Source of the DNA: Myxococcota bacterium
GTDB taxonomy: Bacteria > Myxococcota_A > Polyangia > Polyangiales > Sandaracinaceae
Direction of reading: 5' to 3'
Length of the DNA: 47,667 nt
NCBI GenBank assembly: GCA_036149055.1
Contig: JAYZQJ010000169.1
Location: forward strand, 1-47,667
This document shows, piece after piece, positions 21,035-25,857 of the stretch. The notes under the pieces were generated by a model. It was given only the letters and a program-made list of their open reading frames with translations. It had not been told where the DNA came from and did no database searches. Within the stretch, counting starts at the first letter, position 1; every line of letters starts with the position of its first letter. Made by a program: the position numbers and the translations under genes.

Positions 21035-21406
21035 TCACCGGCAGCGGCGGCCGCGGCCGTCGGGGTCCTGGTGCCGGCCGCGATCGGCGTCGCTGCAGCC
21101 GCAGCTGCCCTCCCCGGCCGGGTCTCCCCAGCGGCCTTGGTCGGTGTCGGTGCAGCCGCGGCGCGGGTTTCGGCCGTGCCCCGGGCGGTCGGCTCCCGCG
21201 CCCTCGTCGCCGTCGGTCGCTCCGGTCCGGCCCCCTCCGGCGGGATCGGCGAGCGGCCCGGTGTCCGAGTCGGTCTGGGCCCGCGCGGGGGCGGCGACGA
21301 GGGCGAGGCCGACCGCGCCGAGGGCGGCCAGCGCCGATCGGCGGCCGACCGCGCGGCCCCGCTCGAAGTCCGCCTCGGTGAGGGTCTGATCCTTCTCGTC
21401 GCGCAC
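21035..21406 (-). CDS. Tat-signal small secreted protein with four Asp/Gly-rich repeats
   Basis: GRRSALAALGAVGLALVAAPARA-Q signal; repeats TDSDTGPLADPAGGGR, TDGDEGAGADRPGHGR, TDTDQGRWGDPAGEGS, SDADRGRHQDPDGRGR. Confidence 0.75.
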   Translation of the reverse strand: MRDEKDQTLTEADFERGRAVGRRSALAALGAVGLALVAAPARAQTDSDTGPLADPAGGGRTGATDGDEGAGADRPGHGRNPRRGCTDTDQGRWGDPAGEGSCGCSDADRGRHQDPDGRGRRCR

Positions 21407-21435
21407 CGCGGGAACTCTGACGTAGGCTGCCCCCG

Positions 21436-22623
21436 ATGGCGAGAGAGCGATGGGATCTGGAGCGGCTGATTCACCCGTTCCCGAGCGAGGCCTTCATCGA
21501 GGAGCGCTTCGAGAACGAGGTGCTCCACGTCGAGCGCGGCGACCCCGGCTACTACGCCTCGCTGCTCGGGCTCGACGACATCGACCGAGCCCTGACGACC
21601 CTGCACCTGCACCACCCCACCGTGACGATGGTGAACGCGGGCAAGCCGGACCTGACGCCCGCCGCCTACACCTACCCCTCGGGGCTCATCGACGCGGCGC
21701 GGCTGTATCAGGAGTACGCCGACGGGGGGAGCATCGTGCTCAACCAGCTCGAGGGCTCGCTGCCGTCGCTGATGGATCTCTGCCGGTCGATGGAGGCGCG
21801 CTTCTCGCATCGCTTCCAGTGCAACATCTACCTCACGCCCGCCGGCGGCGCGCGCGGGCTGGCCACCCACTACGACTCGCACGACGTCTTCGTGCTGCAG
21901 ATCAGCGGGACGAAGCGCTGGACGCTCTACGACACGCCGGTGCAGCGGCCGCTGCGGGGTCAGGGCTTCGAGCCCGGCGCGCACGAGGTCGGGGAGCCGA
22001 CGCTCGCGCTCGACCTCGCGCCCGGCGACATGCTCTACGTGCCGCGCGGCGTGATGCACGACGCGTCGAGCACCGACCAGGACAGCTGCCACATCACCCT
22101 CGGCGTGCTGCCGAGCACCTGGACCGACCTGCTGCTCGAGGCGGTGGCCCGGGTGGCGCTCAAGGACGCGGAGCTGCGCCGATCGCTGCCGGTCGGCTAC
22201 GCGGTGCAGGGCTTCGATCGCGAGGCGGCGCGGGCCCGCTTCCGCGACCTGCTCGGGCGCGTGGTCGAGAAGGCCGACTTCGACGGCGCGCTCGATCACT
22301 TCGCCGAGGACCTGGTGAGCACCCGGCACCCGCTGCTCTACGGTCAGCTCTCGCAGCTCCAGCGGCTCTCCCGGCTGAGCCTCGACGACGAGGCCGCGCC
22401 CCGCCCGAACCTGCTGTTCCACCTGAGCCGCGACGAGGAGCGGGTGACGGTGAGCGCCTACGGAGGCACGCTGTCGATGCCGCTCCACGCCGCCGAGCCG
22501 CTCGAGCACGCGCTGACCGCGCCCCGGTTCCGGGTGGGCGACCTGCCCGGCGAGCTCGACGACGACGGCAAGCTGGTGCTCGTCCGCAAGCTCGTGCGCG
22601 AGGGGCTGGTCGAGCTGCGCTGA
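21436..22623 (+). CDS. JmjC/cupin_4 2OG-Fe(II) oxygenase (YcfD/NO66 ROX-like) with C-terminal winged helix
   Basis: NIYLTP, HYDSHDVFVLQISGTKRW, LAPGDMLYVPRGVMH (HxD...H triad), LVRKLVREGLV. Confidence 0.9.
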   Translation: MARERWDLERLIHPFPSEAFIEERFENEVLHVERGDPGYYASLLGLDDIDRALTTLHLHHPTVTMVNAGKPDLTPAAYTYPSGLIDAARLYQEYADGGSIVLNQLEGSLPSLMDLCRSMEARFSHRFQCNIYLTPAGGARGLATHYDSHDVFVLQISGTKRWTLYDTPVQRPLRGQGFEPGAHEVGEPTLALDLAPGDMLYVPRGVMHDASSTDQDSCHITLGVLPSTWTDLLLEAVARVALKDAELRRSLPVGYAVQGFDREAARARFRDLLGRVVEKADFDGALDHFAEDLVSTRHPLLYGQLSQLQRLSRLSLDDEAAPRPNLLFHLSRDEERVTVSAYGGTLSMPLHAAEPLEHALTAPRFRVGDLPGELDDDGKLVLVRKLVREGLVELR

Positions 22624-22629
22624 GCCGAG

Positions 22630-24798
22630 ATGCGCGGTCTCCGTCTGCAGCTCGGGCTGGTGCTCGCGGCCTCGGCGCTGTGGGCTGCGCTGCCGCACCC
22701 GAGCTTCGCCGCGTGGCTCGGGAGCTACGCCGCGGTCTGGCTGGTCGCGCAGGCGCTGGTCGCGCGGACGGGCTGGCGCTGGACCCTCGGGCGCGGGCCG
22801 ACGCTGGCCCTCGGCGCGCTCCTGCTCGCGGCGCCGGTCGCGCGGGCGATCGAGGCGTGGGGCCCGCTGCTCGAGCGCGAGCGCCTCGACGGAGTCGCCC
22901 ACCTGACTGCGGCCCGGCTCCGACTCGAGCGCACGCCGAGCGTGGCCCCGCCGCTGGTGAGCGCGGATCGACCGCAGACCTTTTACCTGCACGCCGACGG
23001 CGACGCGGTGGCGCTGCGGCTGGGCGACGGCGGCCCCAGGCTCGAGGCGACGCCGCTCGGTCACGGCCTCTTCCGGGTCGCGTACGATCCTCGCCGCGAC
23101 GGGCTCGCCGACCCGCCGGACGGCGCGCTCGAGGCGACGATCGAGGTCGACGGCGAGGCCCACCGGCGCGAGCTGCTCGCCGTCCGGCCGCTGCCCCACC
23201 CCCGCGCGCTCGCGCCCTCCCCGTCCCGCGCCCGCGCCGCCGCGGTGAGCGAGGAGACGGACGAGCTGGCGGTGATCGATCGCGAAGGCCACCTCGAGCG
23301 CGTCGAGGTGCTCGACGGCCCGACCGACGTCGCCTGGCTGGACGAGGCGCGCGTGATCGTGACCCACCGCTACGCCGACGCCGCGATCGTCGAGGGCGAC
23401 GCGGTGACCCCGATCGACACGGGCCCGCTCTGCGTGCACGTAGCGGCGCGAGACGGAGTGGCGGCGGCGAGCTGTCACCGCGCCCTGGTGGTGATCGAGG
23501 ACGGTCGCGTGCGACGGCGCGCGCTGAGCTTCCAGCCGGAGCACGTCGCCTTCGGGCCGGCGGACACCCTGGTGGTGAGCAGCCGCCAGCCCCCCGCGCT
23601 CCATCGGCTGCGGCTCTCGGACCTGGAGCCCGACGTGGCGCCGCTCTTCCTCGGGCGCCCGGCGGTGACGATGGCCGCGGAGGGCGGCGTGGCGGTGGTC
23701 GCGGTGACCGACTTCCGGCCCGACGGCCCGGCGCACCTCGGCAACCACTTCGTCGACGACCAGCTCGTCGACGTCGACCTCGCGGCCTGGCGCCCGATCG
23801 CCTGGCACCGCACCGCCGCCCGCACCGCCCGGCAGCGCGCGCCCGGCGACGTCGATCGCGGCGTCTCTCCGCTCGGCGTCGATCTGGCCCCGGACGGCAC
23901 GCGCTGGGTGGCCTTCGCCGGGACCGACGACGTCTGGGGGCTCCGGGACGGTCGCGCGCCGACGATGATCGCGCTCGAGCACACGCTGCCGACGCCGGTG
24001 TCGGTGGCCGCGCTGTCCGGAGACCGGATCGCCGTCGCGTCGGCCGCGTTCGGCGCGATCGCGATCCACGCCGCGAGCGGACGACCGATCGCGCTCGCCC
24101 GCCTCGCCCCCGACGACGCGACGCTGATGCGAGACGACGAGGCCGCGCTGATGCGCCGCGTCGGCGAGCGCAGCTTCTACGAGAGCACGCGGAGCGGGGT
24201 GAGCTGCCAGAGCTGTCACCTCCACGGCGGGAGCGACGGGCAGCGGCACAACATCGGCGGCGGCGCGCTGGTGGCCACGCTCGACGCGCGCGGGGCGCTC
24301 GGCACGCCGCCGTTCCTGCGCGACGGCGGCTACCCCACCCTCGGCAGCCTCGACGAGCTCGCGCGCACGCTCTACCGCGGCTACCTCCGGCGCCAGGGCG
24401 GGCGGCGGGTCGGGCTCGATCGCTGGCTCGCGTCCCAGCCCCGCCCGACGCCGCCCGCGCAGCTGCTCGGCCGCGATCTCGCGCGCGAGCGGCGAGGGCT
24501 GGACGCGTTCGTGCGGGCGCGCTGCGGGCTCTGTCACGCCTTCCCCGCGTTCACCAACCTCGGGCAGCACCCGGCCGAGACGATCTTCCCGGACTTCGCC
24601 GCCTCCCACGCCGGCTACGAGCTCGACACGCCCTCGCTGCTCGGGCTCGGGGAGAGCGCGCCCTACCTGGTGGACGGGCGCGCCGAGACGCTCGCGGCGA
24701 TCTTCACCGACCACGACGCCGCGCGGCGACACGGCTACGTCGAGGCGCTCGACGAGGCCGCGCTCGCGGACCTGCTGCACCTGCTGGAGGGCCTGTGA
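22630..24798 (+). CDS. Membrane-anchored beta-propeller plus di-haem cytochrome c peroxidase/MauG-like protein
   Basis: About 3 N-terminal TM; YVTN-like blades (DGPTDVAW, QPEHVAF, SPLGVDLAPDG); CQSCH and CGLCH; DTPSLLGLGESAPYLVDG. Confidence 0.82.
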   Translation: MRGLRLQLGLVLAASALWAALPHPSFAAWLGSYAAVWLVAQALVARTGWRWTLGRGPTLALGALLLAAPVARAIEAWGPLLERERLDGVAHLTAARLRLERTPSVAPPLVSADRPQTFYLHADGDAVALRLGDGGPRLEATPLGHGLFRVAYDPRRDGLADPPDGALEATIEVDGEAHRRELLAVRPLPHPRALAPSPSRARAAAVSEETDELAVIDREGHLERVEVLDGPTDVAWLDEARVIVTHRYADAAIVEGDAVTPIDTGPLCVHVAARDGVAAASCHRALVVIEDGRVRRRALSFQPEHVAFGPADTLVVSSRQPPALHRLRLSDLEPDVAPLFLGRPAVTMAAEGGVAVVAVTDFRPDGPAHLGNHFVDDQLVDVDLAAWRPIAWHRTAARTARQRAPGDVDRGVSPLGVDLAPDGTRWVAFAGTDDVWGLRDGRAPTMIALEHTLPTPVSVAALSGDRIAVASAAFGAIAIHAASGRPIALARLAPDDATLMRDDEAALMRRVGERSFYESTRSGVSCQSCHLHGGSDGQRHNIGGGALVATLDARGALGTPPFLRDGGYPTLGSLDELARTLYRGYLRRQGGRRVGLDRWLASQPRPTPPAQLLGRDLARERRGLDAFVRARCGLCHAFPAFTNLGQHPAETIFPDFAASHAGYELDTPSLLGLGESAPYLVDGRAETLAAIFTDHDAARRHGYVEALDEAALADLLHLLEGL

Positions 24799-25391
24799 CC
24801 CGGGCGGTCTACGCGGCGACGCTGGGCGTCGGGCTCGCGCTCCTCGCGTGGGGCGCCGCCGCCGTCACCTGGCCGCTGGAGCGCGCGCTCTTCTGGATCC
24901 GGTCGAGCGGCTGGCTGGCCGCCGGGCTGCTGCTGCTGGCGATCCTGGTCACGCCCCTCGCGCGCCGCCTCCGCTCGCCGTCCAGGGCGCTGCCCTCGCT
25001 GCGGCGCGCGCTCGGGATCTCGGCCGCGGCCAGCGCCACCGCGCACGCCGCCCTCTCTCTCGGCACCCACCTGGACGGAGCGTGGGCGCAGGTCGCGTCG
25101 CTGGCCTGGCTCCGGGCGGGCGCGCTCGCGTGGCTCGTGCTCGCCGCCCTCTGGCTGACCAGCTACCCGGGCGCGGTGCGCGCGCTGCGGGTGAAGCTCT
25201 GGAAGCCGCTTCACCGCCTCGCGCTCGTGGCCGCCCTCCTCGCCTTCCAGCACGCGCTCCTCTCGCCCCTCGCGGCGCGCGGCTGGGTGCTCGGCGTGTT
25301 CGGCGTCGCGGCCGCGGCGTGGCTCACCCGGCTGATCCCTCAGGGCCGCAGCTCGACTCCGTCCCAGGCGAGCAGCCAGTCGCAGACCTGA
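24795..25391 (+). CDS. MsrQ/YedZ-like ferric-reductase transmembrane cytochrome b
   Basis: Tail of shadow ORF 21450..25391; GTGA overlap with upstream stop; SGWLA, LVTPL, RRALG, three His (TAHAA, WKPLHRL, FQHAL), LTS. Confidence 0.85.
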   Translation: MTRAVYAATLGVGLALLAWGAAAVTWPLERALFWIRSSGWLAAGLLLLAILVTPLARRLRSPSRALPSLRRALGISAAASATAHAALSLGTHLDGAWAQVASLAWLRAGALAWLVLAALWLTSYPGAVRALRVKLWKPLHRLALVAALLAFQHALLSPLAARGWVLGVFGVAAAAWLTRLIPQGRSSTPSQASSQSQT

Positions 25392-25857
25392 TCGACGAGC
25401 GCGGTGGCGCCGACCGTCTTCTGGATGACGCCGGCCGCGCCCGCCCGCGCGCAGATCGTCTCGAGCGCGCCCCGATCGAGCGCCGACCAGAACACCACGC
25501 GGGTGGCGCTCAGTTTCCGGAGGGGGCATGCGCCCCCTCCCGCCCGACCGGCAAAGCCGGCTCGGGCTCCCACCCCATCTCACGCGCTCACGCGCGTGGA
25601 AGCTGCGGCAATATTTGCCGCATCTTCAGCTCGCCGTCGGCCCGCACCAGCTCCACCAGGGACGGGCCGTCGAGGCCGGGCATGGTCACGTCGAGCAGGA
25701 CCAGCGCCGGACGGTGGGTGGCGATGGCGGTCAGCGCCCCGAAGCCGCCGTGCTGCCGGACGACCCGCGCCCGCGTCCCCCGAAAGGCCAGCTCGACGAG
25801 CCGGAGCATCTGCTCGTCGTCGTCGATCACGAGGATCACTGCCGGGTTCGGCGACAT
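25340..25857 (-). pseudogene. Single-domain response regulator interrupted by a 116-bp insertion
   Basis: N half MSPNPAVILVIDDD..LLDVTMPGLDG..ADGEL; C half SATRVVFWSA..AGAAGVIQK in another frame; deleting 25514-25629 restores a 133-aa ORF. Confidence 0.85.
25514..25629. mobile_element. 116-bp non-autonomous palindromic element (MITE/PATE/REP-like)
   Basis: TCAG at 25510-25513 and 25626-25629; hairpins GGAGGGGGC-ATGC-GCCCCCTCC, GCCCGACCGGC-AAA-GCCGGCTCGGGC, TGCGGCAA-TAT-TTGCCGCA. Confidence 0.8.

Follow-up and report, generated by a model that had tools for sequence, protein, structure and literature searches.

Four closely packed genes, encoding a repeat peptide with an export signal, an oxygenase, a di-haem protein and a reductase-like membrane protein, raise the question of whether they work as one system. 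The genes lie at positions 21,035–25,391 of a 47,667-nucleotide stretch of DNA from a myxococcote of the family Sandaracinaceae (assembly GCA_036149055.1, contig JAYZQJ010000169.1), hereafter the window. An earlier note, made from the letters of this DNA, had read them as a single candidate peptide-modification and metal-redox system. Our comparative analysis instead points to two independent modules: a peptide with a twin-arginine translocation (Tat) signal paired with a JmjC oxygenase, and a di-haem protein paired with an MsrQ-like membrane protein. The oxygenase likely hydroxylates the repeats of the peptide, probably at aspartate, before predicted Tat export, and the di-haem/MsrQ pair stands apart from this. 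Taken as a whole, we regard this explanation as probable. The peptide–JmjC pair is real and apparently undescribed, its modification and function being predicted. The features discussed are as follows.

21035–21406, minus strand: Tat-signal repeat peptide, 123-residue precursor with a GTG start (module 1)
21365–21382, minus strand: L(X)4F motif of the peptide (residues 9–14, L-T-E-A-D-F), predicted to be recognised by the C-terminal domain of the JmjC
21050–21274, minus strand: four repeats [TS]DxDxGxxxDxxGxG (residues 45–119), predicted hydroxylation and metal-binding region
21414–21428, both strands: back-to-back −10-like boxes, CAGAGT (minus) and TAGGCT (plus), likely serving leaderless divergent transcripts
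21436–22623, plus strand: NO66/MINA-like JmjC Fe(II)/2-oxoglutarate (2OG) oxygenase with JmjC, helical middle and C-terminal winged-helix domains (module 1)
22420–22617, plus strand: JmjC C-terminal domain (about residues 329–394), resembling a RiPP recognition element (RRE) in the structure model
22630–24798, plus strand: propeller/di-haem protein, 722 residues (module 2)
24795–25391, plus strand: MsrQ-like ferric-reductase membrane protein (module 2)

Coordinates and spacing agree with the earlier note, with 29 bp between the divergent peptide and JmjC genes, a 6-bp gap before the di-haem gene and a GTGA overlap with the last gene. Pfam assigns the oxygenase to JmjC_2, gives a sub-threshold CCP_MauG match for the 722-residue protein and places the last gene in Ferric_reduct. 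The window genome (G000) measures 9.9 Mb, with 73% GC and 96% completeness, and the named close homologues are Sandaracinaceae/Polyangiales proteins.

Distribution of the two modules

The peptide and the JmjC enzyme occur together far beyond the window. Within a set of 61 related genomes, drawn from the window's own family and order (the unpublished genome G023 is excluded from the counts), 30 carry a JmjC orthologue; all 30 also carry the peptide, which adjoins the enzyme in 25, and one further genome (82% complete) has the peptide only. A DNA motif scan of GTDB returned at least 124 stretches, 80 of them with flanks, and among the matches listed a JmjC of the same clade lies in 36 of the 80 flanked loci (33 of 76 without overlaps). 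These loci belong to Maricaulis, Parasphingopyxis, Hyphobacterium, Rhodobacteraceae, Brevundimonas, Granulosicoccus, an acidobacterium and myxococcotes. In 39 genomes with a motif locus lacking the enzyme, the JmjC was found elsewhere in 36, and two of the three misses have no match to the hidden Markov model (HMM) of the peptide. The enzyme gene often follows directly behind peptide arrays in the same direction, and the two genes are also often divergent.

Two unbiased samples agree with this pairing. Among 300 evenly drawn Alphaproteobacteria (the class of G068, the seed itself not counted), six carry the JmjC and four the peptide, all four adjoining the enzyme. Beside each of the remaining two enzymes lies a divergent peptide that shares the leader motif; one of these peptides has a Tat signal and Asp repeats, and the other, of 58 residues, has neither. 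Among 200 genomes of the window's own phylum, the same two carry both peptide and JmjC, and the di-haem orthologue occurs in neither. The pairing proposed by the earlier note thus recurs across phyla, and the genetic tie between precursor and modifying enzyme that serves as a criterion for peptides made on the ribosome and modified after translation (RiPPs) is present. The open literature searched, in which subscription journals are largely not covered, contained no description of such a pair.

Variants of the pair were seen in several genomes. Two sphingomonads carry second peptide–JmjC pairs (L230:2482–2874 and L245:4437–4805) with their own enzyme sub-clade and repeats in which Asn often replaces the first Asp. 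At L214:314–5998 (G316:C32), a 58-residue peptide with the same leader motif and no Tat signal lies ahead of a long-branch JmjC, and the neighbours, read by eye, are a TonB-dependent receptor, a FecR-like protein and an extracytoplasmic-function sigma factor. At L252:2557–5123 (G008:C46), an acidic protein of Asp/Ala/Gly repeats, which has a TTLTDDEI leader and lacks a Tat signal, is followed by a distant JmjC and then a sucrase/ferredoxin-like protein. In one complete genome the JmjC match comes in two pieces (L227, G076:C1:3589796–3591067).

The di-haem pair is distributed differently. That it belongs with the peptide, with the di-haem protein and MsrQ oxidising or reducing the exported peptide or its metal, is suggested by the tight packing in the window, by the six genomes in which all four genes lie together and, most strongly, by the sister species G001, in which the peptide still lies beside the di-haem gene. 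JmjC adjoins the di-haem pair in nine of the 26 genomes with both enzymes, and the two are apart in the other 17. The six four-gene genomes form one subclade that shares a wider neighbourhood, and the arrangement there reads as inherited gene order because these linked genomes also share a flanking kinase and other genes. In five relatives, three of them at least 90% complete, the di-haem pair was found and neither the JmjC nor the peptide was, and four have the JmjC without the pair. No di-haem orthologue was found in 67 peptide/JmjC genomes of other families, many of them metagenome-assembled genomes of unstated completeness; as a positive control, the same query matches G000 at 6e-296. The Trp expected of a MauG-type enzyme is also absent from the di-haem protein. 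The earlier note had named separation in related genomes as one test of its proposal, and under that test the four-gene unit comes apart and the peptide–JmjC pair holds. The four-gene system, and with it a role of the di-haem/MsrQ pair as the redox module of the peptide, is not supported, and we consider it quite improbable. Correcting this reading isolates an unstudied MsrQ and di-haem module.

Between the divergent genes, the back-to-back −10-like boxes reported earlier are in place: TAGGCT (21423–28, plus strand) and CAGAGT (21414–19, minus strand) each lie 7 nt upstream of a start codon. Over the 45 largest contigs of the window genome, TANNNT peaks 6–9 nt upstream of ATG, the peak holding 137 matches in 775 first-in-run genes where other positions have about 3 each, and CANNNT peaks only weakly. 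Because TANNNT peaks at this distance genome-wide and both boxes recur in G001, they would fit leaderless divergent transcripts; a scan for full sigma-70 promoters and for terminators found none. The peak also suggests that leaderless transcription is frequent in the source organism. Assembled RNA contigs X2–X4, from one sample, span the peptide gene and part of the JmjC gene, strand and level not being readable from such contigs. One X1 RNA contig crosses the JmjC/di-haem junction, which in an assembled contig cannot show co-transcription.

Proposed recognition and modification of the repeat peptide

The window peptide consists of an acidic n-region, twin arginines (G-R22-R23-S), a hydrophobic stretch and an A-R-A/Q site with predicted cleavage after residue 43, followed by repeats at residues 45–59, 64–78, 86–100 and 105–119. 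The earlier description of four repeats with a DPxGxG ending stands for their number; three have that exact ending, and repeat 2 reads D-R-P-G-H-G. R22-R23 is invariant in 13 of 13 peptides and an RR pair is present in 46 of 46. TIGR01409 matched five of 42 relatives and not the window peptide. The twin arginines, h-region and AxA site expected of a Tat substrate are thus all present, and export is predicted. The L(X)4F motif sits 13 residues ahead of the twin arginines, a distance shared by 38 of the 63 peptides scored with the motif.

A profile built from 13 peptides retrieved 632 clusters at 50% identity, and because the repeat defines a family of this size it is not a chance pattern. The family has no name in Pfam or NCBIfam, and ESM Atlas returned only unnamed clusters and a low-confidence model. 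In the best 150 of the 632 clusters, from which all repeat-composition counts were drawn, Asp occupies the three repeat positions in 99, 94 and 95% of 480 relaxed matches, and 462 strict matches have the terminal Arg in 89% and Pro in 62%. His is not conserved within the repeat, and Asp is its most invariant candidate residue. A Cys before a repeat is matched by a Cys within four residues after it 88 times out of 94; where no Cys precedes, the figure is 19 of 395. The core Cys count is even in 124 of 140 peptides; these counts are not independent, the sequences being related. Since Cys pairs flank the repeats, disulfide-closed loops are predicted, in the window peptide around the last two repeats (C85/C102 and C104/C122). 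Among 131 classified signals, 22 carry a lipobox-like motif.

G000 encodes two further peptide paralogues with no adjacent JmjC (C205:1121–1453 and C215:27980–28333), candidate substrates in trans, of which the C215 paralogue carries a lipobox-like Cys. In P0022, a homologue of the peptide carries, as a C-terminal fusion, a domain matching peptidoglycan-associated models, which hints at cell-wall localisation.

The JmjC protein matches PF08007 at 90.9 bits against a cut-off of 22. Its iron triad (H145, D147 and H208) is present in 85 of 85 clade members and the 2OG-binding K160 in 84 of 85; R117 is invariant in all 85 and variable outside the clade. Many clade proteins are automatically annotated as hydroxylases of Arg81 in ribosomal protein L16. 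The earlier note had likened the enzyme to the ribosomal oxygenase (ROX) type and had named a grouping with the L16 enzymes as speaking against its proposal; in this comparison, the profile gave an E-value of 1e-52 to NO66/MINA, 2e-10 to R. marinus YcfD and 3e-6 to Escherichia coli YcfD. Foldseek gave 3e-31 for NO66/MINA-like structures and 7e-18 for YcfD. The model (pLDDT, the predicted local distance difference test score, of 94) has NO66 as its top fold match, with a Foldseek TM score of about 0.75, and contains, as predicted fold, the helical dimerisation region and the C-terminal winged helix. By sequence, profile and modelled fold the enzyme is NO66/MINA-like and not YcfD-like.

The C-terminal domain of the model consists of three strands, then two long helices and a short turn, and the isolated domain has no Pfam match. 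RREs are defined by three strands followed by three helices, and bacterial homologues of RRE-bearing JmjC proteins occur in RiPP-like contexts (PMC12710340). One locus in our set, L075 (G043:C521:500–10950), has the look of a RiPP-like cluster: a nitrile hydratase leader peptide (NHLP) precursor with an L(X)4L double-glycine leader (L-S-D-A-D-L), three NO66-like JmjC paralogues, two more cupin/JmjC proteins, a PIMT-like methyltransferase, HlyD and an ATP-binding cassette transporter with a C39 peptidase.

Leader and enzyme vary together. In a quick IQ-TREE tree of 95 proteins, clade A (42 rows, support 86) unites Polyangiales with Rhodobacteraceae and Inquilinaceae, and clade B (43 rows, support 99) holds Maricaulaceae, Caulobacterales and Sphingomonadales. 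An acidic long leader accompanies the enzyme in 29 of 29 classified clade-A loci (32 examined, three unclassified; the other ten rows comprise the window's own and nine from loci where no peptide adjoins the enzyme). In clade B, 43 loci were examined, and all 38 that could be classified have a leader that is short and basic. Clade B also has the more acidic C-terminal domain (−7.4 versus −2.8 in A). Leader type thus follows enzyme clade and crosses taxonomy, a pattern that, as one split, is suggestive rather than statistical.

These data bear on the possibility that the peptide is an unmodified Ca- or metal-binding periplasmic protein with which the JmjC is only co-regulated, acting itself on another, for example ribosomal, protein. 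The closest characterised relatives of the enzyme are indeed ribosomal oxygenases, the L16 annotations are frequent and divergent genes are common. Such a role fits poorly with an enzyme that is patchy (6 of 300 and 2 of 200 genomes), always accompanied by a peptide in those samples and often co-directional behind peptide arrays, and with a leader type that follows the enzyme clade across taxa. Of the readings weighed here, we give this one the least credence.

We favour modification of the peptide by the JmjC, given that the two genes are linked across phyla, that the Fe/2OG site is intact and that the peptide carries a twin-arginine signal. In the proposed mechanism, the RRE-like C-terminal domain would bind the L(X)4(I/F) stretch in the n-region of the signal peptide, and the export signal would double as a RiPP leader, so that the peptide would stay cytoplasmic until its modification. 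The enzyme would then beta-hydroxylate at least one of the three invariant Asp residues of each repeat, and may also serve the 2–12 matches per genome located elsewhere. The peptide would next be exported by Tat and cleaved by signal peptidase or, in members with a lipobox-like motif, be anchored by a lipid, after which Cys pairs would close the repeats into loops. In the least certain step, the product would bind a metal (Fe, Ca or a lanthanide) in the periplasm or at the surface. Beta-hydroxyaspartate is an iron ligand in siderophores.

Asp is preferred as the target because it is invariant, because the divergent partner peptide at L213 keeps the three Asp residues without the terminal Arg, and because R117 is specific to the clade. 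The same enzyme–substrate pair might instead target Arg or His in the GxGR tail, or yield a product that binds no metal and serves a surface, structural or signalling role. YcfD hydroxylates an Arg in a Gly-rich loop and NO66 and MINA are histidyl hydroxylases (PMC6182338, PMC5862935); the frequent terminal Arg adds to this, as does the lack of any conserved metal-related neighbour. The L213 peptide and the variability of His within the repeat stand against it, and we consider this version unlikely.

Several observations weigh against aspartyl hydroxylation guided by the leader. The characterised ROX enzymes act on His or Arg (PMC6182338, PMC5862935), and with Arg ending 89% of strict repeats an Arg target is possible. 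The winged-helix domain is also described in NO66, MINA and YcfD, which act on ribosomal proteins, and its function in ROX enzymes is called unclear in these sources; because ribosomal ROX enzymes share the domain, the fold alone is no proof of leader binding. The JmjC C-terminal domain has no Pfam RRE/PqqD match. The leader/clade correlation amounts to one deep split in a quick tree with a support of 86 for clade A, and the L(X)4F of clade B is an ordinary Tat motif. Five of the 30 relatives with the JmjC have no adjacent peptide, and in G001 the JmjC has moved to another contig without one, the peptide staying beside the di-haem gene (L021, C72) with both boxes kept in the gap. Among recurring neighbour clusters of 80 peptide–JmjC loci, no transporter, receptor or metal regulator is conserved, so metal binding is without genomic support. 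No conserved peptidase or third partner appears among these clusters either, the recurrent ones read by eye being housekeeping genes (ruvABC, transketolase).

The pair would supply a candidate substrate for a large NO66-like clade (at least 1308 clusters at E ≤ 1e-40), most members of which are annotated as hypothetical, cupin or L16 hydroxylase, and it makes leader binding by the ROX winged-helix domain directly testable with two small genes.

The di-haem protein and its MsrQ-like partner

The genes of module 2 are adjacent in 30 of the 31 genomes with a di-haem orthologue, the exception lying at a contig end, and they overlap by four bases in 17 of 25 loci with both genes called. A di-haem/MsrQ fusion in G032 (L033, 950 residues) was rejected as frameshift read-through, the last di-haem residues lying in another frame.

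The model of the di-haem protein comprises three N-terminal helices, predicted to form a membrane anchor, a beta-rich domain, a propeller at about residues 187–493 and a less confident di-haem domain. CxxCH motifs occur at residues 526–530 and 632–636, two being present in 116 of 119 homologues, and profile matches lead to cytochrome c peroxidases (CcPs). On haem 2 the distal ligand is Tyr in MauG/MbnH and Met in CcP; across the 119 homologues no Met or Tyr is conserved after residue 680, H701 is conserved in 100% and H695 in 76%. The position of the catalytic inter-haem Trp of CcP and MauG was placed using the CcP motif FWDGR. It was mapped through the alignment with the gamma subunit of hydrazine synthase (HZS) and PMC12758564, and is occupied by Arg in 97% of the homologues (Arg564 in the window protein). 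The MauG/MbnH analogy drawn in the earlier note does not survive this replacement.

The protein instead resembles HZS. The profile matches HZS gamma (E-value 8e-10) and HZS beta (4e-7), gamma is the best di-haem structure match, and beta is the top propeller (Z 30.1, root mean square deviation 2.9 Å over 290 residues), 1.0 Z above the next. Foldseek with the whole model as query found generic propellers only, and ESM Atlas neighbours are unnamed propeller/CcP proteins. Haem gamma-II of HZS is described as bis-His (PMC12758564, PMC12607021). No HZS alpha-like gene was seen in the loci, and no genome-wide search was made.

In the MsrQ-like protein, R70 is conserved in 24 of 25 rows (one from G023) and R71, H84, H140 and H153 in all 25, the equivalence to E. 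coli R77/R78/H151 being drawn by motif and not by direct alignment. It scores 36 bits against an NCBIfam MsrQ cut-off of 130. The earlier description as an orphan holds: the protein is the only PF01794 match in the 96%-complete G000, where no MsrP (PF00174) was found, and the PF00174 control matched nine of 14 genomes. Against the earlier statement that MsrQ passes on quinol electrons, a 2025 paper argues that reduction proceeds via flavin mononucleotide (FMN), bound by the RR pair, and not from ubiquinol in E. coli (PMC12525009).

Given the absent inter-haem Trp, the likeness to HZS and an MsrQ partner with an RR pair, module 2 is likely a reductant-fed, membrane-anchored periplasmic haem enzyme and not a MauG-type protein oxidase. 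Electrons would cross the membrane through MsrQ, enter at a probably bis-His haem (H701) and then reach the active-site haem, which may reduce a small substrate such as peroxide, nitric oxide or an N/S-oxide.

G000 carries six more distant di-haem domain paralogues (contigs C168, C4, C147, C31, C253 and C198). Relatives have several each, and in genus g6 one lies 2–4 kb from the orthologue. Downstream of module 2, at 25583–25857 on the minus strand of the window, a response-regulator-like reading occurs in pieces; relatives have a single open reading frame of 127–136 residues there, and the gene is possibly broken here.

A bolder joint reading of both modules is conceivable, and we hold it doubtful as a combination. 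Module 1 would represent a widespread two-gene class of ribosomal metallophores, in which an NO66-like JmjC-RRE reads L(X)4I in the Tat signal and beta-hydroxylates Asp in tandem, disulfide-stapled repeats to make Fe/lanthanide chelators, the ROX winged helix being a leader-binding RRE; separately, Polyangiales would possess a new periplasmic reductase in the Trp-less, HZS beta-gamma-like enzyme that MsrQ feeds.

Comparison with known systems

Both halves of module 2 have characterised counterparts. HZS beta-gamma and its non-anammox homologues share a seven-bladed-type propeller and a CcP-like di-haem domain with the window protein (PMC12758564, PMC12607021), in which a C-terminal HG motif aligns with HZS gamma. 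The window protein differs in its membrane anchor, its MsrQ partner and the Arg at the position of HZS His144 and CcP Trp. MsrPQ likewise has an MsrQ-type membrane protein with an RR pair and three His (PMC12525009), whereas the window protein falls below the MsrQ cut-off, lacks an MsrP in its genome and is partnered by a di-haem c protein.

The JmjC of module 1 shares with the ROX enzymes NO66/RIOX1, MINA53/RIOX2 and YcfD/RoxA the succession of JmjC, helical and winged-helix domains and the HxD...H triad (PMC6182338, PMC5862935). It is 25% identical to NO66, its top match by sequence as well as fold, and 16% to YcfD, and its clade has invariant R117, Q128, H149 and G223 at positions changed from NO66. 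Its distribution is patchy and tied to a secreted peptide, and there is no sign of a ribosomal substrate.

Among 2OG/Fe hydroxylases acting on RiPP precursors are MppG, with the Nif11-leader peptide MppE, and BipG of biphenomycin (PMC12707348). The C-terminal RRE of MppG is reported to engage an L(X)4L leader motif (bioRxiv 10.64898/2026.10.04.756588), a feature that the window pair would share in prediction. Those hydroxylases perform tailoring steps in multi-enzyme clusters, whereas in the present pair no enzyme besides the oxygenase is conserved, the n-region of the Tat signal contains the motif and the core is an acidic protein of several repeats; these systems were compared by description and not by sequence.

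By analogy, the closest logic is that of the bufferins. Together with the oxazolins, they are described as signal-peptide-bearing, sometimes repeat-built precursors that are modified before export; according to a preliminary report, the recognition sequence includes the signal peptide, and the products are metal chelators (PMC11626156, PMC12452194). Their MNIO enzymes act on Cys and export is by Sec, in contrast to the JmjC, Tat signal and Asp-rich repeats found here. If our reading is correct, the bufferin principle of an export signal doubling as a leader would extend to Tat export and 2OG chemistry.

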